This document shows positions 5,810 to 33,776 of a stretch of 43,956 nucleotides of DNA, piece by piece. The notes under the pieces were generated by a model. That model had not been told where the DNA came from and did not search any database. It saw only the letters and a list, made by a program, of their open reading frames with translations. The stretch is from an uncultured Bacilli bacterium (GTDB taxonomy: Bacteria; Bacillota_I; Bacilli_A; RF39; UBA660). The stretch is taken from assembly GCA_947595345.1 (NCBI GenBank), contig CANQEQ010000001.1, positions 1-43,956 of the forward strand, read 5' to 3'. The stretch's first letter is position 1. Every line of letters begins with the position of its first letter. Made by a program: the position numbers and the translations under genes.

Positions 5810-6700
5810 TTATAATTTTTCTTCTATATCTAAAATTTCTATAATCCGATTAAAATCATTCAAATCATCAAAGTTAATTTCTATTTTACTTCCCCGAATA
5901 CGAACTTTTGTACCAAGTTTTTCACATAATAACTCTTGAACATATTTGTAAGTTTTACTTTCTTCGGTTTCTCTTCGTTCCATTTTATTACGTTTTTCAT
6001 AAGTTTTATCTTGAGCAAGTTCTTCAACTGAAGCAGAGGTTAAACCTTCATTTATTATTCTATCAGCTAAAGCTTCTACTTTAGCTACATCTTTAATTTT
6101 ACTTAAAGTTCTAGCATGAGTTGCTGGTATTTTTTTAGCAATAACTAATTCTTTAACACTATCAGGTAAATTAATTAGTCCTACCATATTAGTTACATAA
6201 CTACGACTTTTGCCAATTCTTTTAGCTAATTCTTCATGGGAAAGACCTCTAGCTTCCATTAAACTTTGATAAGCTAAAGCTTCTTCAATAGGGTTTTAAT
6301 CTTCTCTTTGTAAGTTTTCAAGTAAAGCTATTTCCATCATTTCTTGGTCATTAAAGTCACGAACAATAGCCGGAATTGTCGCTCTACCAGCAAGACTTGA
6401 GGCTTTAACCCGACGTTCACCAGCTACAATTTCATAACCTTTAATACTTTTTTTAACAATAATAGGTTGAAAAACACCATGTTCTTTAATTGAGTCAGCA
6501 AGTTCAGCTAAAGCTTTTTCATCAAACACTTTTCTTGGCTGATAAGGATTACTACGAAGTTCACTTATATTTATTTCTAAAATTTCTTCTTTAGGAGTAT
6601 CAGCCACGATTTGTTCTTCTAAAGTTTCAATATCTAAAACTTCAGCTCCAAATAATTCTTCTAAACCTTTTCCTAAGGCTCTTCTTCTAGATGTTTCCAT
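5810..6700 (-). pseudogene. parB: ParB/Spo0J chromosome-partitioning protein interrupted by an in-frame TAA at 6296-6298
   Basis: The track splits the gene into 6296..6700 (METSRRRALGKGLEELFG...IVAGERRVKA...LLENLQRED) and 5810..6259 (MEARGLSHEELAKRIGKSRSYVTNM...). Reading through gives ...LQRED-TAA-NPIEEALAYQSLMEARGLS in one frame. The stop replaces the conserved Leu of the LQRExLnPiEEA motif. Confidence 0.85.
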
Positions 6701-7472
6701 TTCGCATTATCACTTCCTTTGCTAAATTTATATAAGCTTCTGACCCTTTACTTTTAGGGTCATATGAGACAATTGGTTTACCATGACTAGGTGCTTCAGC
6801 TAGTCTAATTAATCTTGGAATAATTGTATCATAAACTTTATCTTTAAAATAACTTCTAATTTCTTCTATTACATCAAGTCCTAAATTAGATTTTGATAAC
6901 ATTGTTAAAAGTACTCCTTCAAGGTCTAAACTTGGATTTAAGTTCTTTTGAGCAAGCATAACAGTATTTAATAATTGAGTAATTCCTTCAAGCGCATAAA
7001 ACTCACATTGAACTGGAATTAAAACAGAATTACTAGCCGTTAGAGCATTAGTTGTTATCATACCTAAACTAGGGGGACAGTCTATTATAATATAATTGTA
7101 TTTATCTTTTATATCAGCTATTTTTTCTTTTAATTGATATTGTTTTCTAAAACTAGTATCAACCCGACTTTTTTCCATTAATTCTATATCAATACCGGCT
7201 AATTGAATTGTAGCTGGCATAATATCTAACTTTGGAAAATCAGTTTTTACAATGACATCTTCGGCACTACAATTTCCTCTTAATAAATCATAGATGCTTT
7301 TATCAATATCACCTTTATTTATTCCAACTCCGGTTGTTGCATTTCCTTGAGGGTCAAGGTCTATCAATAAAACACTCTTTCCAAGTAAGGCTAAAGAGGC
7401 TGATAAATTTATACTGGTTGTAGTTTTTCCAACTCCACCTTTTTGATTTACTAATGATATTATTTTTCCCAT
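6687..7472 (-). CDS. soj: ParA/Soj chromosome-partitioning ATPase
   Basis: The deviant Walker A is present in MGKIISLVNQKGGVGKTTTSINL. Other ParA landmarks include DLDPQGNAT and IIIDCPPSLG. It overlaps the parB start by 14 nt. Confidence 0.95.
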   Translation of the reverse strand: MGKIISLVNQKGGVGKTTTSINLSASLALLGKSVLLIDLDPQGNATTGVGINKGDIDKSIYDLLRGNCSAEDVIVKTDFPKLDIMPATIQLAGIDIELMEKSRVDTSFRKQYQLKEKIADIKDKYNYIIIDCPPSLGMITTNALTASNSVLIPVQCEFYALEGITQLLNTVMLAQKNLNPSLDLEGVLLTMLSKSNLGLDVIEEIRSYFKDKVYDTIIPRLIRLAEAPSHGKPIVSYDPKSKGSEAYINLAKEVIMRNGNI

Positions 7473-7653: not shown

Positions 7654-9858
7654 TTATTTTTTTATTTTAATAGTTATTTGATAATAATCGTCAAATTCTA
7701 TTTCTTCGGTATCTATACTAATATTATTTTGTTTTATAGCATCAGTTGTCTTTTTAAGTTCTAAAACAGCTCCTTTAGTATCAAAGATAGTTCTAACTGG
7801 TTCTAACTTAATATATTGATTATCTGACTCTTGATTATCAGATTTAGTTGTTTCTTCAGTTTCATTTTCCTCAGTTTCAACTTTTGCTACATCTTCTTTA
7901 TTTTCTTCTTCATTTATAGTTTCAGTCTCGGCTTCACTATTTACTTCTTCGCTTGTAGTTTCTTCAGAAGTTTCAGTTTCAGTATTTGGAGTTTCAACAT
8001 CAATTACTTCTACTTCGTCAACTACTTCAGCTTCTTCAGGTTCTTGAGGTTCTTCTTTTGTCTCTTCTTCAGTTGTTTCTGAAGCTTCCGTATTTTCTTT
8101 GAAATCTTCAGAAGGTTTTTCTTCCTTATTAGAATTTTCTTCCTCTTTATTATCTAATTCTTTAAATTCCTCGTCTTTTTCTTCTTTAGCTTCTTCTTTA
8201 TTATCATCTTTTTCAGTTTCCTCATTGTTTTCTTTTGGTTCTACTGGAACTGGAGGAATATTGAATAAATCACTAAACTCATTCTTTTCTTCTTTTTGGT
8301 TATCAGAAACATCTTTTGTATTTTCTTCAGGAGCCTCATTAAAGTCCGAAGAGCCTTGACTATTTCCTGGAACATCAACTATATTTAAAGGTTGATTAAA
8401 TAAGCCACCTTGAGGTATTTGATAATTTGGTTGAGGATTATTGCTTGGAAATGAAAAATCTTCTATTGGCTTTTGATAATCATTCATATTGTTAAAAGCA
8501 AAATCAGTAGGACTTCCGAAATTACCTTGATTAAAATTATTACCTGGCATTCCTTGATTAAAGCTATTCATATTATTAGCAGGATTAGAAGGAAAATCAA
8601 AGTTATTATTCATATTAGAATTAAAGTCATTAATTGGTCCCATATTCATGTTGTTATTATTCATAAAATCAGTATTTCCCATATTATTTGGCATAGTATC
8701 AAAGTTAGGTAAGAATTGATTTTCAGCTGGTTTATTACTATTTTCTTTAATTTGACTCATGAATAAGTTAGGATTATTGTCATTTGTAGTAAAATCATTT
8801 TGTACATTTTGATTAACATTACTACCATCAAACATAGAACCTAAAGAACTATAATTTTCTGGATTACTATTTGAATTATTTGTATTTCCCATACCAAAGT
8901 AATCAGGTGTTTCATTCTCCTCAGGCATTTTTAAATCATTACCGGTTCCAAAAGAGCTGTAATCATAATCAGTAGATGTTTCTTTAGAACTTGAATTAGT
9001 ACTTTCTAACATACTATTAAAAGCTGGTTGAGGCATTGTATTTCCAGTATTATTAAAATTAGGAATATTATTAAACATACCATTGTTAATTGTACTTTGA
9101 TAATCATTTAATCCCATATTTCCAAAATTTCTATTGTAGTTTTGAGACATACCATAATTTTGATTAGGAGTAGGGGAATTATTGTTATTTTGCATTCCAT
9201 AAAAATTATTATTATTCATACTAGTTTCTCCTTCCATATTATTATTCTCTTTAATTTCTTTAATTATTTTATCAAGTTCCCGAACTGTTAAACGTTCTTT
9301 TTTAATTCTTTCAAGTAAATTTAATTGTTCCTCTTTATTTTTTATATTAAGCAAACTTCTAGCATGACGTTCACTTATTTGATTTTTTATTAAAGCATCT
9401 TGAATTTCCTCAGGAAGAGATAAAAGTCTTAATTTATTAGCAACCATAGGTTGACTTTTTCCCATAGTCTTAGCAAGTTCTTCTTGAGTCATATTCGCAA
9501 GGTCTAAAATTCTTTTATAAGTACGAGCTTCTTCAATCGCACTTAAATTTTTTCTTTGTAAATTTTCAAGAAGAGATACTTTAGCACTTTCTGTGTCGTC
9601 CATATCCCGAATAATCGCTGGAATTGTCGTTAAACCAGCCATAGCACTGGCTTTTGTTCTTCTTTCACCAGCAATAAGCTCATATTTATCTCCAATAGGA
9701 CGAACAACAATTGGCTGAATAATTCCGTGTTCTTTAATTGAGTCAGCTAATTCTTCTAAACCAGTTTCATCAAATATTTCCCGAGGTTGAAAACGATTAG
9801 GAATAATGTCGTCTATTCTTAAATAAGTTACTTCATTATCGCCTTTATCTTTATTCAT
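7654..9858 (-). CDS. noc: Noc-like ParB-family protein with a roughly 480-aa low-complexity insertion (734 aa)
   Basis: The N-terminal 200 aa form a ParB/Noc core: IIPNRFQPREIF, HGIIQPIVVRP, ELIAGERRTKA, LLENLQRKNLSAIEEA and an HTH (MTQEELAKTMGKSQPMVANKLRLL). The C-terminal roughly 50 aa (ISIDTEEIEFDDYYQITIKIKK) resemble the B. subtilis Noc C-terminus as I remember it. The position between rsmG and soj is that of noc. Residues about 204-681 are N/Q-rich and then E/K/T-rich low complexity. Confidence 0.8.
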   Translation of the reverse strand: MNKDKGDNEVTYLRIDDIIPNRFQPREIFDETGLEELADSIKEHGIIQPIVVRPIGDKYELIAGERRTKASAMAGLTTIPAIIRDMDDTESAKVSLLENLQRKNLSAIEEARTYKRILDLANMTQEELAKTMGKSQPMVANKLRLLSLPEEIQDALIKNQISERHARSLLNIKNKEEQLNLLERIKKERLTVRELDKIIKEIKENNNMEGETSMNNNNFYGMQNNNNSPTPNQNYGMSQNYNRNFGNMGLNDYQSTINNGMFNNIPNFNNTGNTMPQPAFNSMLESTNSSSKETSTDYDYSSFGTGNDLKMPEENETPDYFGMGNTNNSNSNPENYSSLGSMFDGSNVNQNVQNDFTTNDNNPNLFMSQIKENSNKPAENQFLPNFDTMPNNMGNTDFMNNNNMNMGPINDFNSNMNNNFDFPSNPANNMNSFNQGMPGNNFNQGNFGSPTDFAFNNMNDYQKPIEDFSFPSNNPQPNYQIPQGGLFNQPLNIVDVPGNSQGSSDFNEAPEENTKDVSDNQKEEKNEFSDLFNIPPVPVEPKENNEETEKDDNKEEAKEEKDEEFKELDNKEEENSNKEEKPSEDFKENTEASETTEEETKEEPQEPEEAEVVDEVEVIDVETPNTETETSEETTSEEVNSEAETETINEEENKEDVAKVETEENETEETTKSDNQESDNQYIKLEPVRTIFDTKGAVLELKKTTDAIKQNNISIDTEEIEFDDYYQITIKIKK

Positions 9859-9903
9859 ACAATCCCTTCTTTCTTCTTTTATGGTATTTCCCTATGATAA
9901 TAT

Positions 9904-9930
9904 ATTATATCAAAATAAAGTTTTTTACAA
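9904..9930 (-). promoter_or_regulatory. Putative extended -10 promoter of noc
   Basis: The minus strand reads TTGTAA, a 15-nt spacer, then TGA-TATAAT, about 45 nt upstream of the noc ATG. Confidence 0.45.
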
Positions 9931-9960
9931 TGTTTTTTTCTATTTTTGTAGAAAATTTGT

Positions 9961-9990
9961 AAAAGAAAATCACAGTATTTCCCACTGTGA
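9961..9990 (-). terminator. Rho-independent terminator downstream of rsmG
   Basis: The hairpin pairs tcacagt (9970-9976) with actgtga (9984-9990) around a 7-nt loop. It is followed on the minus strand by TTTTCTTTT (plus-strand 9961-9969). Confidence 0.6.
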
Positions 9991-10101
9991 TATAATATAG
10001 TTTTAGTTTAATATCTAATATGTAAACATCTATATTTTATTTTTAAGTTAAACTAAGGATTAATCTTGTTTTTAACTTCTTTTAAAGAAACCTTAATCAT
10101 T

Positions 10102-10236
10102 TTAAAAGTTATAGTTAAAATCTCTGCGCACGCCAAAGGCAGCCCAGCTAACATAATCTGCTAACATCTCACCATTTGAACGAACATCTATAAGGTAAGC
10201 ATCACCATTGACTGAAGAGAGATTAGAAGGCGACAT
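10102..10236 (-). other. Short 44-codon ORF or gene remnant in a locally GC-rich patch (MSPSNLSSVNGDAYLIDVRSNGEMLADYVSWAAFGVRRDFNYNF)
   Basis: Reading from ATG (plus-strand cat 10234-10236) to TAA (plus-strand tta 10102-10104), the composition is clearly richer in G+C than the flanking intergenic DNA. The LIDVRS segment is reminiscent of rhodanese-domain N-termini. The SD is weak and distant. Confidence 0.25.
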
Positions 10237-10268
10237 ATTTTTTAATAGATTAACCCCTTTATTTATTT

Positions 10269-10979
10269 TTATTTTTTTAGATAATCTTTCTTTATCTTAT
10301 CAAAACGTCTTGGAAATTTATTAATAGTTTCCTTTTCTTTTATAATCGTTACTAAAGTTCTTAAACTATTTTCTTTAGGAAGTTTAAATTCTTCACATTT
10401 AATTATAGAAGCTCCAATTTGTTTTAAAATATTCTTACTTTCTTCTATTTCAGTTACTACATTTGATTTCATAGCTATAAAATAACCATTTACTTTAACT
10501 GTTGGAATAATTGTTTCTATTAATATTCCTAAATGGGCAACAGCTCTTGCTACTACAACATCATATTTATTTTTATTAACTCTTGAATAGTCTTCAATTC
10601 GCGTGCATACTGTTTCTATATCTTGTAAATCAAGGTCTTTAATAATTTCATTTAAGTAATTTATTCGTTTACTTGTAGCATCTAAAAGGGTTATTTTTAA
10701 ATTGGGAAATACTATTTTTAAAACAATTCCCGGAAATCCTGCTCCCGTTCCTACATCTAATAATTTTAAATCTTTAGTTAAATCTAAAGCCTTAATTAAG
10801 GTTAAACTATCATAAAAATGTTTTAAATAAACTTCTTCTTTATTAGTAATTGTTGTTAAATTAAGTTTTTCATTCCATGTAATTAAAAGCTCATAAAATC
10901 TTTCTAATTTAGTAATTTTTTCTTTATCTAACTTAATATTTAATTTTAAAAGTTCTTCTTGAAATTCTTCAATGTTCAT
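10269..10979 (-). CDS. rsmG: 16S rRNA (guanine527-N7)-methyltransferase RsmG (GidB)
   Basis: The SAM motif is LLDVGTGAGFPGIVLKI. The gene is 236 aa, overlaps the mnmG stop by 11 nt and follows the canonical mnmG-rsmG order. Confidence 0.9.
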   Translation of the reverse strand: MNIEEFQEELLKLNIKLDKEKITKLERFYELLITWNEKLNLTTITNKEEVYLKHFYDSLTLIKALDLTKDLKLLDVGTGAGFPGIVLKIVFPNLKITLLDATSKRINYLNEIIKDLDLQDIETVCTRIEDYSRVNKNKYDVVVARAVAHLGILIETIIPTVKVNGYFIAMKSNVVTEIEESKNILKQIGASIIKCEEFKLPKENSLRTLVTIIKEKETINKFPRRFDKIKKDYLKK

Positions 10980-17747: not shown

Positions 17748-18770
17748 TTAGATACTTTTGTTAATTTTTATTAATTCTAAAGCTTTTTCTTTGTTATCTT
17801 TTGTCATTCCTATTAATATTTTAGAATTCTTTTCTTGTAATTTTTTTAAAACTTCGTCTATGATTTTTTCTTTATTTTCCTTAATTAAATTAGTATTACA
17901 TATATTATAGGTTTTATTATCTGATGTTAAAATTTTTATATATTTGTTAACTGTTATTCCGTTGTAACGATATTCATATTTATATGCCAAGATTATATCT
18001 TGATAGTTTATTATAATAATATTCTTACTTAAATCTACAACATAATTAGAAGTTAAATATAATTTTATTTTTTCATAAGGACTTGATTTTAATATTTGAA
18101 CTTCATGATAGATTTTTGTTATATCAGCTTCACTGTAACGTTTTAAGATTTTATTAGTTCTTACCTTTCTAATTAGAAAGACTATAAATAAAGATAGAAA
18201 AATCATAAGTAAAACACTTGCTAGAATATAAAATTCAAAAGAATTATAAGGTGATAAATTAGTATCTAATAAGACTTCTCCTACATAATCCTCAAAGTTT
18301 TCTAACGTTAGGTAATCATTATCTACTACTTTATTGTATTCGTCTATGGCTAGTTTCTTAATATCGTTTGGAATAATTCTAGTTGTACCGGTTATTGTAA
18401 TTGGAAAATCGTCTTCTTTTTTAGCTTCTATTTCTTTAAACTCTTTTGAATTCATATAGATAATATATAAAATATTATGATTATCCATAGCTAAATAGTA
18501 TTTACTATCTTCTTCAATGCCATAATTTTGGTAAACAGCAAACATAACTGGAACGTTATTAATATCAACTGAGGCATATATATTGTCAATATCTTTAACA
18601 TCCCCAACTAAATCGCGCATTTCTTGAGGATTTTTTAAAGGTGTATGTTCTCTTTTATAAGCAAAAATTCCAACTCCGGCTCCAGCTAATAACATTAGAA
18701 GGCCTATACCAAGAATTATTTTATTTTTTCTTTTGTAACTTTTAAACAAATCGGTGTTTATTTTTTTCAT
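17748..18770 (-). CDS. Hypothetical membrane-anchored protein (340 aa) adjacent to oriC
   Basis: There is an N-terminal TM segment (ILGIGLLMLLAGAGVGIFAY) and a second TM near residue 180 (FYILASVLLMIFLSLFIVFLI). I recognised no motif. Confidence 0.6.
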   Translation of the reverse strand: MKKINTDLFKSYKRKNKIILGIGLLMLLAGAGVGIFAYKREHTPLKNPQEMRDLVGDVKDIDNIYASVDINNVPVMFAVYQNYGIEEDSKYYLAMDNHNILYIIYMNSKEFKEIEAKKEDDFPITITGTTRIIPNDIKKLAIDEYNKVVDNDYLTLENFEDYVGEVLLDTNLSPYNSFEFYILASVLLMIFLSLFIVFLIRKVRTNKILKRYSEADITKIYHEVQILKSSPYEKIKLYLTSNYVVDLSKNIIIINYQDIILAYKYEYRYNGITVNKYIKILTSDNKTYNICNTNLIKENKEKIIDEVLKKLQEKNSKILIGMTKDNKEKALELIKINKSI

Positions 18771-19421: not shown

Positions 19422-20807
19422 ATGAACAATGAAGTTTTGTGGCAAAAATTTCTAAACTCAGTTAAGGAAAAAGTTAATTCAATGGTATTTAAAACCTGGT
19501 TCAGTGAGACTTCACTTCTAAGTCTTGACGACGTGAAAGCTACTATTGTAGTACCTCTTGAAATTCATAAAACTAGGATTATGGAAACTTATTATCCTTT
19601 AATTACAGGTATTTTAAAAGATTTAACTGGAAAACTTTATGATTTAGATGTTGTCTTAGAAGAAGATGTTAAAGATAAACTAAAAAAAGAAGAAGAGATT
19701 AAAGTAGAAAATACTCCTCAAAAAATACCAAAATTTAAACATCAATCTAATTTAAGAAGTGAATATACCTTTGATACATTTATTGTTGGAGCTAGTAATA
19801 AATTAGCCCAAACAGCAGCTTTTGCAGTCGCTGAAAGTCCAGGTTTAACTTATAATCCTTTATTTATATATGGTAAAAGTGGACTTGGTAAAACCCATTT
19901 GATGCATGCTATTGGAAATTATAGTCAAAATGTCCATAATAAAAAAGTTTTATACGTTACAAGTGAACAATTTATTGAAGATTTTTTGGTTTTAAGTCGG
20001 AAAGATAACAAAAAAAATAATCAAATAGATACTGATAATTATGATTATGCTAGTTATTTCAAAGACAAATACCGAAATATTGATATTTTAATAATTGACG
20101 ATATTCAGTTTCTAGCTGGAGCACCAAAGACCCAAGAAGAATTTTTCCACACCTTCAATGATTTACGAGCTAACAAAAAACAAATTATTATATCTTCTGA
20201 TAGGTCACCAAATGATTTAAAACTTTTAGAAGATAGACTTCGTACTAGGTTTGGCTGGGGTGCAATTGTAAATATTTATCCACCTGATTTAGAACTTAGA
20301 ATTAACATTTTAAAGAAAAAAATTGAAGGAGCTAAATTAGCCCAAGATTTCCCGGAAGAAGTTCTAGAATATATTGCTTCTAATATTCCAAATGATGTTA
20401 GAAATCTAGAAGGAGCTATTAATAGATTAATGTTATATTCCTTTATGTTAGGAGGAGCACCAATTACTTTGCCTCTGGCAATTGATGCTTTAAAAGACGA
20501 GATTACTAAAGGAACTAGTGAAAAAAATGATATTTCTAAAATTCAAACCGTAGTAGCTGATTATTTTCAAATATCAGTTGAGGATTTAAAAGGAAAGAAA
20601 CGGAGTGCTAGTATTGCTTTTCCAAGACAAATTGCCATGTTCTTATCAAGAGACGTATTAGACGAGTCGTTTCAAAGAATTGGTTCTGAATTTGGGGGAC
20701 GTGACCATTCAACTGTTATGTATTCTTGTGAAAAATTAGAGAATGATATAAAAACTAATAAAAGTATTAGAGATACAGTTGAAAAAATTAAGAGTAACTT
20801 AAATTAA
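19422..20807 (+). CDS. dnaA: Chromosomal replication initiator protein DnaA
   Basis: Matches include YTFDTFIVGASNKLAQ, the Walker A IYGKSGLGKTHLMHAIGN, IDDIQFLAG, and the domain IV segment RQIAMFLSRD...IGSEFGGRDHSTVMYSCEKL. SD aaaggagg is present. Confidence 0.97.
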   Translation: MNNEVLWQKFLNSVKEKVNSMVFKTWFSETSLLSLDDVKATIVVPLEIHKTRIMETYYPLITGILKDLTGKLYDLDVVLEEDVKDKLKKEEEIKVENTPQKIPKFKHQSNLRSEYTFDTFIVGASNKLAQTAAFAVAESPGLTYNPLFIYGKSGLGKTHLMHAIGNYSQNVHNKKVLYVTSEQFIEDFLVLSRKDNKKNNQIDTDNYDYASYFKDKYRNIDILIIDDIQFLAGAPKTQEEFFHTFNDLRANKKQIIISSDRSPNDLKLLEDRLRTRFGWGAIVNIYPPDLELRINILKKKIEGAKLAQDFPEEVLEYIASNIPNDVRNLEGAINRLMLYSFMLGGAPITLPLAIDALKDEITKGTSEKNDISKIQTVVADYFQISVEDLKGKKRSASIAFPRQIAMFLSRDVLDESFQRIGSEFGGRDHSTVMYSCEKLENDIKTNKSIRDTVEKIKSNLN

Positions 20808-32021: not shown

Positions 32022-33776
32022 ATGGAATATCAAGCTTTATATAGAAAATATAGACCTAAAACTTTTAAAGATGTAGTTGACCAAGAAAGTATTTTAAAAA
32101 TTATTACTAATTCTTTAAAAGAAAATAAAATTTCCCATGCTTATTTATTTTCAGGACCAAGAGGAACTGGGAAAACAACAATTGCTAAGTTATTAGCTAA
32201 AGCTATTAATTGTACAGATTTACAAGAAGATTTTTCAACCTGTGGTAAGTGTTCTAATTGCTTGGATATAGAGAATAATAGTCCGGATATAATTGAAATA
32301 GATGCTGCTAGTAATAATGGGGTTGACGAGATAAGGGAACTTAAAAGTAAAATAAATTTAGTACCTAATAAATTAAAATATAAAGTTTATATAATAGACG
32401 AAGTTCATATGTTATCTATAAGTGCTTTTAATGCTCTTTTAAAAACCCTTGAGGAGCCTCCTAGTCATGTTGTATTTATTCTAGCAACCACGGAGTTTTA
32501 TAAAGTTCCAACGACAATTGTTTCCAGATGCCAATGTTTAAATTTTACAAGAATTAAAACCGAGAATATAGAAAAAAGATTAAAAGAAATATCTAAAATA
32601 GAAAATATAAAAATAGAAGATGAGGCTATTCGGGAAATTGCTCTTTATTCAGAAGGTGGAATGAGAGATGCCTTAGGAATGCTTGATAAACTTGCTTCAT
32701 ATTCTTTAAAAGAAATAACCGTTAAAGATTTTTTAAGTATTAATGGACTTATATCTAAAAGTGATATAGATAACTTTATAAATTTAATACTTACTGGTAA
32801 GACCCTTGATGTAATAGAAAAATTAAAAGAATTTGATACTTTAGGTTATGATTTTTCTAAATTAATTGAAAAAATTATGCAAGAAGTAAGAGATTTAATG
32901 GTCTTGTATTATACAACAAATGATAAAAAATATAATCCTCAGGATTTATCAGATTTAATTATATGTTTAAATGAAACTTATAATTTATTAAGGGAAGCTG
33001 CTAATAGAAAAATAATTGTTGAAGTTAAGTTATTAACATTCATGAATAAAGAAAATGCTAGTCTAGCTAGTAAAAATCAAGAAATAGCAAAGACTAGTTT
33101 AGGTGAAGAAAATAAAGGAAAAAGCCTTAAAATAGTTGAAATTAAAGAGCCTAATGTTAGTTTAGAGGTAAAAGAAGAACCTCAAGAGGCAATTTCCCGG
33201 GAAATTGCAGAAGTTTCAAAAAATGTTCTTGAAAAACAAAAACCAGAGGGAAATAAACCTAAAAGCCTTGAAAAGTATAAAATTAACTTAGAAGTTAAAA
33301 AACAAAGAGTAGATAATACATTTGCTTTAGCTAGTAAAGTTTTAAAGAATATGGCTATTGATAAGTGGCAGAATTTAATTGATTATATAAATAAAGAGGA
33401 AACCAGTGAGTTATCAGGACTTTTAAAAGACTGTGAAATTGGAGTTGTTAGTAAGAATAATATTATTTTAGTTACAAAATATGAATCAGTGCTTGATAAA
33501 TTATATGATAATTGGGTAAAGACTAACGAGTTATTAAAGGAGCTTTTAGAAGAAGAATATAAAGTTGTAATTTTAAGTGATTTAGAATTCAAAGAAGAAG
33601 TTAAGAATTATAAAGAACATATGAATGATAAAGATTACTATGTATATAAAGAAGAGAGTAAACCTTTTATAGAGTTTTTGAATAAGGAAGTTGAAAATAA
33701 TAATAAAGTATGTTACTCTAGTTTAGTAGAAAAGGCAATAGATGCTTTTGGAAGTGATATTGTAGAAGTTGAATAG
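32022..33776 (+). CDS. dnaX: DNA polymerase III subunit gamma/tau
   Basis: Matches include MEYQALYRKYRPKTFKDVVDQE, HAYLFSGPRGTGKTTIAK, the zinc module CGKCSNC, IIDEVHMLS and SRCQ. ATG 32022 lies behind aaggtggtga. Confidence 0.95.
   Translation: MEYQALYRKYRPKTFKDVVDQESILKIITNSLKENKISHAYLFSGPRGTGKTTIAKLLAKAINCTDLQEDFSTCGKCSNCLDIENNSPDIIEIDAASNNGVDEIRELKSKINLVPNKLKYKVYIIDEVHMLSISAFNALLKTLEEPPSHVVFILATTEFYKVPTTIVSRCQCLNFTRIKTENIEKRLKEISKIENIKIEDEAIREIALYSEGGMRDALGMLDKLASYSLKEITVKDFLSINGLISKSDIDNFINLILTGKTLDVIEKLKEFDTLGYDFSKLIEKIMQEVRDLMVLYYTTNDKKYNPQDLSDLIICLNETYNLLREAANRKIIVEVKLLTFMNKENASLASKNQEIAKTSLGEENKGKSLKIVEIKEPNVSLEVKEEPQEAISREIAEVSKNVLEKQKPEGNKPKSLEKYKINLEVKKQRVDNTFALASKVLKNMAIDKWQNLIDYINKEETSELSGLLKDCEIGVVSKNNIILVTKYESVLDKLYDNWVKTNELLKELLEEEYKVVILSDLEFKEEVKNYKEHMNDKDYYVYKEESKPFIEFLNKEVENNNKVCYSSLVEKAIDAFGSDIVEVE
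33189..33208. promoter_or_regulatory. Perfect 20-bp palindrome containing the Noc-binding-site consensus ATTTCCCGGGAAAT
   Basis: The sequence gcaatttcccgggaaattgc is its own reverse complement. The central 14 bp (33192-33205) equal the published B. subtilis NBS consensus. It lies in the variable linker region of dnaX. Confidence 0.6.

Follow-up and report, generated by a model that had tools for sequence, protein, structure and literature searches.

A long, predicted disordered linker with conserved motifs in the Noc protein of an uncultured Bacilli lineage

The locus between rsmG and soj in a 43,956-nt stretch of DNA (the window) raised the question of what kind of protein occupies the position of noc there, and of what the roughly 480 residues that separate its DNA-binding and C-terminal domains are for. 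The host is an uncultured, low-GC gut Bacilli lineage. The reading preferred here, with a probability of about 0.5, is a Noc CTP clamp in which the membrane helix is absent and a disordered, partner-docking and self-associating linker would serve as the effector.

The gene (7654 to 9858; minus strand, as for all features below unless stated) was one uninterrupted 2,205-nt reading frame of 734 codons and a TAA stop with an ATG start, and was assigned as a noc orthologue from the list of reading frames, NCBIfam, PDB and synteny. An in-frame TAG read directly in the sequence 5' of the start codon (9892 to 9894) excluded a longer N-terminus. The upstream control region (9904 to 9991; about 99% identity with the relative L001) contained a terminator-like hairpin (9991 to 9969), then TTGTAA (9930 to 9925) and an extended -10 element, TGaTATAAT (9912 to 9904); from their sequence, these hexamers may be the noc promoter. 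The neighbouring genes were rsmG (10269 to 10979) and soj (6687 to 7472), and the order rsmG-noc-soj-spo0J was found in the window and in four other lineages. This is the place expected of a noc gene in the ORI cluster (PMC8136486), with rsmG (gidB) on one side and soj-spo0J on the other. The first-pass annotation had put a protein of the Noc family, with a ParB fold, at the noc locus, with which Pfam, NCBIfam and synteny agreed, and the peptides it quoted were all found in the protein.

Residues 1 to 204 formed the ordinary ParB/Noc core that had been described. The ParB N-terminal CTP-binding domain (9556 to 9834; residues 9 to 101; Pfam PF02195, E = 2e-33) was modelled by AF2 with a pLDDT of about 90, and was followed by the HTH DNA-binding domain (9247 to 9552; residues 103 to 204; Pfam PF17762, HTH_ParB, E = 3e-33). 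GERR was located at residues 64 to 67 and LLENLQR at residues 96 to 102 (ENLQR 98 to 102), and both GERR and ENLQR were invariant across 58 homologues; it is from these conserved motifs that the protein is labelled a putative CTPase. The Noc-like C-terminal domain of about 53 residues also proved real (7657 to 7815; residues 682 to 734; TIGR04285 and AF2). This Noc-type dimerisation domain, taken alone (residues 688 to 734), matched the end of TIGR04285 (positions 209 to 255; E = 6e-5), was predicted by AF2 as one helix and two strands (pLDDT about 80), and was 94% identical to that of a relative (dN/dS 0.07).

The best NCBIfam match of the whole protein was TIGR04285 (nucleoid_noc) in two stretches, with a score of 286.4 bits, under the curated cutoff of 315, for a match interrupted by the linker; the best sequence matches among solved structures were to Geobacillus Noc (7NG0 and 7NFU). 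Residues 9 to 216 aligned to positions 1 to 208 of this 255-position model, and the last 47 residues to positions 209 to 255. The split of the match at 208/209 placed the extra residues (about 470) exactly where the DNA-binding domain (DBD) joins the C-terminal domain (CTD). What had been reported as an insertion at 7816 to 9249 (residues 204 to 681) did not, then, interrupt a domain, and was instead an expansion of the DBD-CTD linker by about 25-fold. The corresponding linker of ParB, "invariably ~20 aa" long and Lys-rich, forms a DNA-entrapping chamber, and the meaning of its length and lysines was stated as unknown (Jalal et al. 2021, PMC8367383). By homology with ParB, the linker of the long Noc should delimit a DNA-entrapping compartment. 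The protein resembled the canonical ParB/Spo0J clamp in its ParB_N, HTH_ParB and C-terminal dimerisation architecture, and differed from it in a linker about 25 times longer with a net charge of -77, in lacking LG(K/R)GL, and in having NBS-type and not parS-type residues.

The specificity residues in the HTH domain were Q136, K142, S147 and R164, mapped onto Q173, K179, K184 and R201 (ParB numbering, Jalal 2020). Three of the four NBS-determining residues were present, with S where K184 was expected, and Q136, K142 and R164 were invariant. One Lys at 179 or 184 suffices for NBS specificity (Jalal 2020, PMC7383237), and the pattern QK[S/A/T/G/M]R was found in 191 of the relatives scanned. An exact Noc-binding-site palindrome, ATTTCCCGGGAAAT, was located within dnaX with zero mismatches (33192 to 33205; no strand assigned), where 8e-5 exact sites were expected per window (0-order model). 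Within the 44 kb of the window this was the sole exact site, and three related loci had none; L007, a related lineage, carried a second, which makes two lineages with an exact site for an expected count of about 2e-4. In 122 kb there were only five perfect palindromes of 16 bp containing 4 or more G+C, and the exact NBS was one of them. Identity as a Noc is supported by the Q-K-x-R residues together with this candidate site.

Compared with the Noc proteins of B. subtilis and Geobacillus thermoleovorans (7NFU, 7NG0, 6Y93), the long Noc had the same locus, three folded modules, CTP motifs and Q/K/R NBS residues, an exact NBS in the genome, and a Noc HMM covered end to end. It differed in its linker (about 480 residues, acidic and Asn-rich, as against short), in having no N-terminal membrane helix, in S and not K at specificity position 184, and in a TIGR04285 score of 286 against the cutoff of 315. 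The linker of B. subtilis Noc is basic.

The premature stop reported in the adjacent canonical parB was present, as an in-frame TAA (6296 to 6298) where Leu (TTA) was expected, but it was peculiar to this genome. An intact ParB (292 to 297 aa) stood beside the same long protein in four related lineages, and the long Noc is therefore no replacement for a lost ParB. That it acts as a functional centromere-binding ParB, compensating for the broken gene next door, would agree with the stop codon and with a search of 44 kb around oriC in which canonical parS was not found; the idea is nonetheless extremely unlikely, given the intact ParB of the relatives, Noc-type Q/K/R specificity residues in place of R...G, and the exact NBS. 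In addition, the N-terminus of the long Noc, MNKDKGDNEVTYLRIDD, was without the motif that binds ParA, given as (L/F/I)G(K/R)G(L/F/I) (PMC12704722), whereas the neighbouring ParB kept ALGKGLEEL.

An artefact of assembly, frameshift or annotation, or a pseudogene in decay, would likewise accommodate the stop in parB, as well as closest relatives that are MAGs, a window apparently of a metagenome-type assembly, and an exact protein sequence that is not on record elsewhere. The reading frame was however uninterrupted, both flanking domains were in frame and under purifying selection, and the linker-coding region contained no DNA tandem array able to collapse or expand. The same architecture occurred in 98 protein clusters from independent assemblies (ENA, NCBI, JGI and Logan), with contigs as long as 145 kb, and the probability of an artefact is negligible. 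These 98 clusters formed one clade with the same synteny, and their linkers measured from about 290 to 570 aa; in sister lineages, linker length ranged continuously from about 80 to 250 aa. A linker profile compared with 1.84 billion representative proteins gave no matches beyond the long-linker Noc clade. The first-pass annotation had asked how widely the insertion occurs, whether its length varies and whether the region was correctly assembled; the linker was clade-wide and no peculiarity of this gene, vertically inherited, variable in length and free of assembly artefact. The hosts of the long-linker proteins were uncultured MAGs.

The N-terminal amphipathic membrane helix was absent, as had been noted before, both in the long Noc and in all 221 relatives examined. 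The protein started 6 to 8 residues before strand beta-1, with its residue 7 opposite residue 25 of chain 7NFU (Geobacillus Noc) in the alignment, and the upstream TAG pointed the same way. In 209 of the relatives the IPNRFQPR box was preceded by only 13 to 20 residues; the others had acidic extensions or apparently mis-called starts. In B. subtilis Noc the helix is required for function (PMC4331003). It is the only established effector of Noc, and it was missing here, with the residues for DNA recognition and the NBS sites retained: either nucleoid occlusion differs in long-Noc bacteria, or their Noc has another job. The loss of the helix, and linker motifs rich in F, L and M, might suggest that the linker itself is a membrane tether directly replacing it. 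This is very unlikely, as an 11-mer scan found no substitute cationic amphipathic segment outside the folded helices, and the linker had 7 basic and 31 acidic residues in its Asn-rich part and 16 basic and 69 acidic residues in its acidic part; an anionic tether should be repelled by the anionic bacterial membrane.

Composition bore out the Asn-rich and then polyacidic region of about 480 residues described between the HTH and C-terminal domains. It consisted of an Asn-rich, aromatic-containing segment (8314 to 9246; residues 205 to 515; composition and AF2) and a polyacidic Glu/Thr/Lys-rich segment (7816 to 8313; residues 516 to 681; composition), both predicted to be disordered. In the former, N was increased (26.4% vs. 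7.2% in the other 37 reading frames of the window) and K and I were decreased (1.9% vs. 9.8% and 2.3% vs. 10.4%, respectively), L was also depleted, and P, G and M were enriched; F+Y+W made up 11.3%, P 8%, D+E 10% and K+R 2.2%, and Q, at 5.5%, was far below Asn. The codons of K, I and L are AT-rich and these residues are common in the rest of the genome, yet they were scarce in the linker. The polyacidic segment contained 33.7% E (69 acidic and 16 basic residues, net charge -53), and the whole linker of about 478 residues had 23 basic and 100 acidic residues. Between motif 5 (below) and the C-terminal domain (residues 498 to 681 here), homologues had a tract of 45 to 223 aa that was net negative in all of them. 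Across 48 non-redundant homologues, linkers contained 21 to 38% N, 9 to 13.5% aromatics and 0.3 to 3.8% K. With an alignment of 58 sequences, AF2 gave a pLDDT below 50 and no secondary structure over residues 214 to 685, and likewise when the linker was modelled alone; taking low pLDDT as a proxy, the linker is predicted to be disordered. It had been called low in complexity, which held to the extent that Shannon entropy was lowered (3.57 and 3.12 bits in the two parts vs. 3.88 in the core) and failed in that no tandem array was found in its DNA and conserved, non-repetitive motifs were present.

The classical mark of a Q/N-rich prion domain, after Michelitsch and Weissman, is a stretch of 80 residues with 30 or more Q/N. 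The linker reached a maximum of 32, against at most 19 in the other reading frames of the window, with 61 consecutive 80-residue windows (starting at residues 194 to 401) at 30 or more, and is Q/N-rich by this measure; of 130 reading frames with a length of 150 aa or more, taken from the window and from related loci, Noc orthologues alone had 22 or more. The earlier description as prion-like was thus correct for composition, but with 8% Pro, 10% Asp+Glu and an adjoining polyacidic tract, though with K+R depleted, the linker appears to differ from yeast prion domains, and prion behaviour does not follow from it. A bacterial prion or amyloid switch, in which the Asn-rich domain would self-propagate and heritably inactivate or alter Noc, would draw on the Q/N content, the predicted disorder and an Asn-rich bacterial prion-forming domain in Clostridium botulinum Rho as a precedent (PMC4703818). 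It is quite unlikely here. Proline, acidic residues and a polyacidic neighbour (166 residues in this case) disfavour amyloid nucleation in yeast-type prion predictors, and the strongly conserved, specific motifs point to defined interactions. Even spacing of aromatics marks low-complexity domains that are liquid-like and not aggregating, and the aromatics of the linker were more evenly spaced than random (coefficient of variation of gaps 0.58; z = -2.2 vs. 500 shuffles). Aromatic-spacing z was negative in 47 of 48 homologues (mean -1.7), which are related and therefore do not constitute independent evidence. Two bacterial prion surveys do not mention ParB or Noc in their main text.

The linker conformed to the sticker-and-spacer pattern of uniform aromatics in a polar spacer. 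It resembled the domains of FUS/hnRNPA1, Sup35/Ure2 and Clostridium botulinum Rho in being Q/N-rich, Gly/Ser/Pro-containing, predicted disordered and depleted in aliphatic and basic residues, with evenly spaced aromatics. It differed from them in 26% Asn against 5.5% Gln, appreciable Asp+Glu and Pro, a long polyacidic tail, and embedded motifs under strong purifying selection.

Five motifs, and a weaker sixth, were conserved in the linker. Motif 1, NFGNMGLNDYQ (9097 to 9129; residues 244 to 254), had invariant M, G, L, D and Y in the linker alignment, with G249 and L250 at least 90% conserved even with short-linker relatives included. Motif 2, GMFNNIPNF (9055 to 9081; residues 260 to 268; P266 at least 90%), was kept in the long-linker clade, and motif 3, SLGSMFDG (8824 to 8847; residues 338 to 345), was 80 to 100% conserved in 47 non-redundant homologues. 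Motif 4, NLFxSQIxE...ENQFLPNFD (8698 to 8769; residues 364 to 387), had invariant F, P and N, and 98 of 99 long-linker proteins carried LPNF[D/N/S/V] in the linker. Motif 5, GGLFNQPLNIVDVPG (8365 to 8409; residues 484 to 498), had invariant G, F and L and at least 90% conserved L, N, P, N and V. Motif 6, EFSDLFNIPPVPVEP (8236 to 8280; residues 527 to 541; alignment consensus), had a family consensus of approximately NPxxDxYExILxxKPVP, also found in the fragments P0244, P0245 and P0249. None of the motifs gave a convincing match to known bacterial binding motifs.

The dN/dS was 0.084 in the motif islands, similar to the core (0.13) and the C-terminal domain (0.07), and 0.53 between islands. This pattern speaks for a linker under selection and not for junk, with five or six motifs as constrained as folded domains, and its portrayal as a mere prion-like spacer does not survive. 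Much of the fast-evolving length between motifs may be weakly constrained; an inter-motif dN/dS of 0.53 was still below 1, though alignment noise would inflate dN. The polyacidic segment was 42% identical to that of the closest relative, with many indels.

Neutral runaway expansion, by which the linker would have drifted into an Asn-rich (AAT/AAC) spacer in an AT-rich genome and act as a connector only, is consistent with a genome of 24 to 31% GC, within-clade linker lengths of 288 to 569 aa, the continuum of lengths in sister lineages, the inter-motif dN/dS, and a linker 42 to 62% identical to that of the closest relative with more than 100 gap positions, compared with 97% identity for GyrB. 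However, AT bias should raise K, I, F and Y, whereas K, I and L were depleted and P, G and M enriched; the composition recurred in all 48 non-redundant members, and no comparable region was found in 130 neighbouring reading frames. With the evenly spaced aromatics, a dN/dS below 1 even between motifs, and motifs constrained to the level of the folded domains, drift is an unlikely explanation.

In the preferred reading of a clamp with an effector linker, the folded parts would be an ordinary ParB/Noc CTP-dependent DNA clamp with NBS-type specificity, nucleating at NBS sites and spreading, and the linker would take over the effector role. Its conserved motifs would dock a conserved partner, at a best guess a protein of the divisome or one associated with the membrane; weak, multivalent self-association could come from the Asn/aromatic segment, and the acidic tract could keep the tether soluble, off DNA and off the anionic membrane. 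Nucleoid occlusion would then proceed through a nucleoid-bound brush or condensate that captures the partner, and not through a helix pinning DNA to the membrane. The proposal builds on the observed Noc identity, architecture, predicted disorder, clade-wide conservation and selection pattern; we infer from these every functional role of the long Noc, including CTP clamping, in vivo NBS binding, partner docking and condensation.

Disordered linkers with docking peptides are familiar from FtsZ, in which a C-terminal linker of variable length evolves fast and is accompanied by a short conserved docking peptide. The long Noc shared with it a division-related disorder of variable length and fast evolution with conserved docking-type motifs, and with length and composition kept; it differed in that the disorder was internal, between folded domains of a DNA clamp, with several motifs and not one terminal peptide. 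Even with no domain of this kind, Noc of B. subtilis phase-separates under CTP control, forming condensates that bring FtsZ to the membrane (PMC9606368). Well-defined natural cases of bacterial prion-like domains and condensates are still lacking, and the long Noc could be a clean one, with a prion-like sticker-and-spacer region fused to a putative CTP-regulated condensate former. ParB-family CTP clamps are being studied intensively, and the clade also constitutes a natural experiment on the ParB-type linker, here 15 to 28 times longer and acidic, yet conserved lineage-wide, and the motifs, constrained like folded domains, are concrete handles for a partner search.

A helix-less, re-invented nucleoid occlusion, in which the motifs would capture a divisome or membrane-anchor protein in a condensate combined with a giant-lumen clamp, is a possible but doubtful extension of the preferred reading. 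If true, the giant-lumen ring made from a linker of 480 residues could get past roadblocks as it slides, or enclose two or more duplexes. The [I/L]-P-x-F core of ENQFLPNFD has a loose resemblance to the C-terminal peptide of FtsZ, to which FtsA, SepF and MinC bind. In a sister subgroup, the PNFD motif was found on an N-terminal extension instead of in the linker, which would mark PNFD as a portable effector peptide.

The long noc ORF (7654-9858, minus strand) encoded 734 aa from an ATG start to a TAA stop, and lay between rsmG upstream (10269-10979) and soj (6687-7472) with spo0J/parB downstream, the classical noc position in the Firmicutes origin cluster (PMC8136486). The window spanned oriC, as the cumulative GC skew had its minimum near 19 kb and dnaA was located at 19422-20807. 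Pfam assigned ParB_N to residues 9-101, HTH_ParB to residues 103-204, and no further domain. The top NCBIfam model was TIGR04285 "nucleoid occlusion protein", with positions 1-208 matched by residues 9-216 and positions 209-255 (of 255) by the last 47 residues taken alone; the whole-protein score (286) was below the curated cutoff (315). The first-pass annotation had described a prion-like N/Q-rich plus polyacidic insertion at 7816-9249. This stretch corresponded to residues 204-681, between the core (1-204) and the C-terminal dimerisation domain (CTD; 682-734), and all peptides quoted for it were found there.

The top solved-structure matches were Geobacillus Noc (198 bits), with Spo0J behind (178 bits). 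Residues Q173, K179, K184 and R201 (ParB numbering) switch the binding of ParB from parS to the Noc-binding site (NBS), a single Lys at 179 or 184 being sufficient (Jalal 2020, PMC7383237). The equivalents in long Noc were Q136, K142, S147 and R164; the Q, K and R were invariant across the family, and the pattern QK[S/A/T/G/M]R was present in 191 of the scanned relatives. An exact NBS palindrome, ATTTCCCGGGAAAT, was present inside dnaX (33192-33205; 16-bp form AATTTCCCGGGAAATT, 33191-33206), with an expected count of 8e-5 in the window, which is 44 kb of the genome. An exact NBS-type palindrome, TATTTCCCGGGAAATA, was found between mnmE and mnmG in the related lineage L007 (7267-7282). In 122 kb there were only five perfect palindromes of 16 bp that contained 4 or more G+C, these two NBS-type sites among them. 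Judged from sequence, the long protein is a Noc orthologue by descent and DNA-binding features.

Asparagine made up 26.4% of the Asn-rich part of the linker (205-515) vs 7.2% of the other 37 window ORFs, and Pro, Gly, Met and Phe were also enriched. Lys (1.9%), Ile (2.3%) and Leu (2.6%) were depleted relative to those ORFs (9.8%, 10.4% and 11.1%, respectively), although all three are AT-rich-codon residues, abundant in this genome of 24-31% GC. Glu made up 34% of the acidic part (516-681), in which 69 residues were acidic and 16 basic. The Q/N maximum in the linker was 32 per 80 residues and did not exceed 19 in any other window ORF; in a set of 130 ORFs (>=150 aa) from the window and related loci, only Noc orthologues reached 22 per 80. 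TRF detected no DNA tandem array in the linker region, only micro-repeats (2-5 copies, scores <=51).

An alignment of 47 non-redundant homologues revealed islands of near-invariance in the linker: NFGxMGLNDYQ (motif 1, residues 244-254), GMFNNIPNF (motif 2, 260-268), SLGSMFDG (motif 3, 338-345), NLFxSQIxE…ENQFLPNFD (motif 4, 364-387), GGLFNQPLNIVDVPG (motif 5, 484-498) and the weaker EFSDLFNIPPVPVEP (motif 6, 527-541). They were made up of hydrophobic or aromatic residues and then an acidic one (…DY, …MFD, …NFD, …IVDV). In a single pairwise comparison with the closest relative, over aligned sequence that is partly low-complexity, dN/dS was 0.13 in the core (93% identity), 0.42 in the Asn-rich part overall (62% identity), 0.53 in the acidic part (42% identity) and 0.07 in the CTD (94% identity), with neighbouring genes at 0.05-0.27. 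The motif islands had a dN/dS of 0.084, against 0.53 for the Asn-rich part between them. More than 100 gap positions separated the two linkers. Composition was steady across homologues (N 21-38%, aromatics 9-13.5%, K 0.3-3.8%), as was the charge arrangement, mildly negative and then a strongly negative tract. A neutral, AT-driven expansion of the linker would account for the length variation and the fast-evolving spacer, but it leaves the K, I and L depletion, the constant composition and the motif dN/dS of 0.08 unexplained, and is improbable.

Aromatic residues were more evenly spaced than in shuffles (z = -2.2 in long Noc), and 47 of the 48 homologues had a negative z (mean -1.7); being related, they do not amount to 47 independent tests. 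The Q/N count would permit a true prion switch; given the Pro and acidic residues, the acidic tail and the evenly spaced aromatics, such a switch is quite unlikely.

Two known binding motifs were compared with the islands. The beta-clamp-binding QL[SD]LF was rejected by inspection for motif 4, as the residue preceding Phe could be L, P, T, I, V or R, and Asn usually stood in place of Gln. The likeness of motif 1 (NFGxMGL; NFGLPGLE in the sister group) to a relocated ParA-binding LG(K/R)GL is no more than a curiosity, as the essential basic residue was missing and the spacing differed. Mimicry of the FtsZ C-terminal peptide by ENQFLPNFD, a very short similarity, can be taken as a lead only; the organism's FtsZ, FtsA and SepF are encoded outside the window. 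ENQFLPNFD was located in the linker of 98 of 99 long-linker proteins, and PNFD(T/I)DSS in an acidic N-terminal extension of a sister subgroup of short-linker Noc relatives (proteins P0114, P0257-P0259, P0261, P0263, P0272 and P0279). That one short peptide recurs at two distinct places suggests a portable motif for interaction.

With a 58-sequence alignment as input, AlphaFold2 (AF2) modelled the core with a pLDDT of about 90 and the CTD, a helix and two strands, with about 80; residues 214-685 had a pLDDT <50 and no secondary structure. The linker modelled alone likewise had no secondary structure (mean pLDDT 46). As to a hidden folded domain, no fold appeared in AF2 with the full alignment or with the linker alone, and the motif islands reached a pLDDT of only 50-60. 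From AF2 confidence and composition, the linker is predicted to be disordered.

Searching 5.8 billion proteins gave 98 clusters (541-824 aa); their source assemblies were from ENA, NCBI, JGI and Logan, and the contigs were up to 145 kb long. Nearly all shared the core, the C-terminus …IDTEEI[ED]FDDYYQI.IKIKK and a linker rich in Asn (19-35% N); in one, P0090, the C-terminus was missing. In a neighbour-joining tree of core plus CTD, the long Asn-rich proteins formed one clade with linkers of 288-569 aa, and their sister group had acidic/Pro-rich linkers of 150-226 aa. The insertion, whose spread and length variation among orthologues the first-pass annotation had put forward for checking, was clade-wide. 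In more distant relatives, searched from the sister group, linker length ranged continuously from about 80 to 250 aa. The carriers were uncultured gut Bacilli, the closest genome being a rabbit-gut MAG (GyrB 97% identical); other relatives came from "Bacilli bacterium", "Erysipelotrichaceae bacterium" and Candidatus (Allo)scybalousia MAGs. The gene order mnmE-mnmG-rsmG-noc-soj-spo0J-DUF951-abgT-ychF was kept in four related lineages. An assembly artefact or a DNA repeat was ruled out by the presence of TRF micro-repeats only and by an architecture common to independent assemblies; given also the 98 clusters and the conserved gene order, the probability of an artefact is negligible. A profile of the motif-bearing part had 22 matches among 1.84 billion representatives, all of them in the long-Noc clade or in N-truncated fragments of long Noc, and none placed the linker module in another architecture. 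By this profile search, the module is private to long-Noc proteins.

The N-terminal helix is needed for B. subtilis Noc function and was predicted in all homologues examined (Adams 2015, PMC4331003). Long Noc differed from known Noc in lacking this amphipathic, membrane-targeting helix, the one known Noc effector element, in agreement with its earlier description as not evident: residue 7 aligned with residue 25 of the Geobacillus Noc chain. A longer N-terminus hiding the helix was rejected, as the ATG has an in-frame TAG 34 nt upstream and is also preceded by the gene's own terminator-plus-promoter-like region. Only 13-20 residues preceded the IPNRFQPR box in 209 of 221 relatives, and the remaining 12 had acidic extensions or apparently mis-called starts. 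Relocation of the helix into the linker was also rejected, as a hydrophobic-moment scan located cationic amphipathic 11-mers only in folded core helices. Direct binding of the membrane by the linker is very unlikely in view of the linker charge.

In ParB clamps, DNA is entrapped inside a chamber that lies between the DBD gate and the CTD and is created by the linker (Jalal 2021, PMC8367383). The same element in long Noc had about 480 residues and a net charge of about -77. At about 0.36 nm per residue in an extended chain, each linker arm could exceed 150 nm if fully extended. By homology, long Noc would load at NBS sites and close as a CTP clamp, and the dimer's two linkers would together make a loop or brush that is large, flexible and anionic. 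The domain-like constraint on the motifs argues that they dock specifically, the target being either a conserved partner or the protein's own folded domains. The Asn/aromatic spacer is composed like a sticker-and-spacer low-complexity domain and may serve as a self-associating tether. B. subtilis Noc phase-separates under CTP regulation, forming condensates that recruit FtsZ to the membrane (PMC9606368). Since B. subtilis Noc already phase-separates, a built-in self-associating tether would fit condensate-type nucleoid occlusion, which would no longer need the helix. The composite reading, an NBS-loaded CTP clamp with a partner-docking, self-associating linker in helix-free nucleoid occlusion, is given about an even chance (probability about 0.5).

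In the full-text literature, supplementary tables and subscription journals aside, no description of a long- or disordered-linker, low-complexity or prion-like ParB/Noc was found. Disordered or low-complexity regions went unmentioned in a 2025 survey of ParB-fold diversity, and ParB and Noc were absent from the main text of two bacterial prion-candidate surveys. Long-linker Noc is a variant of known Noc, with an architecture apparently undescribed in the literature searched.

The neighbouring parB/spo0J (5810-6700, minus strand) carried an in-frame TAA (6296-6298), the premature stop of the first-pass annotation, and was split by it into ORFs of 134 and 149 aa. The TAA stands where the conserved ENLQREDLNPIEEA box has Leu (TTA), and it is a real stop codon here because noc ends in TAA; it is explained either by a nonsense mutation that arose very recently or by a base error. 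Replacement of the broken ParB by long Noc is highly unlikely, given the specificity residues of long Noc and an intact ParB of 292-297 aa in the related lineages examined (L001, L003, L005 and L007). The ParB recognition region of the long-Noc clade was unusual, with GKSRSYVTNMVGLINLP…PATHAR (HTH, 5810-6259) and its four specificity positions occupied by R, M, N and T. The 44 kb surrounding oriC contained no canonical parS (TGTTNCACGTGAAACA, <=2 mismatches). These bacteria may have a centromere sequence other than the Firmicutes consensus.

The rsmG-noc spacer (9859-10268; L001 5603-6000) measured 410 nt, against 85-130 nt for the spacers of other lineages. The ~265 nt nearest noc were shared by the window and L001 at about 99% identity, and an ~85-nt GC-richer core (about 10140-10225) was completely different. 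The conserved flanks of this core, GGTTAATCT…ATGTCGCCTTCT and TTGGCGTGCGCA.AGATTTTAAC, were partly complementary. A 44-aa ORF in the spacer had no conservation, and no Rfam match was obtained there at E up to 1, the sole gathering-score Rfam match in the window being SRP RNA (31390-31484). The spacer core may be a structured RNA or a mobile-element remnant. Three adjacent small ORFs of 121, 112 and 115 aa (29959-31333, plus strand), immediately upstream of the SRP RNA and dnaX, had raised Asn (13-16%) and no Pfam family above threshold. A 340-aa ORF (17748-18770, minus strand) without a Pfam match adjoined the oriC/dnaA region, and the gene at the equivalent position in L005 was marked DUF6709.
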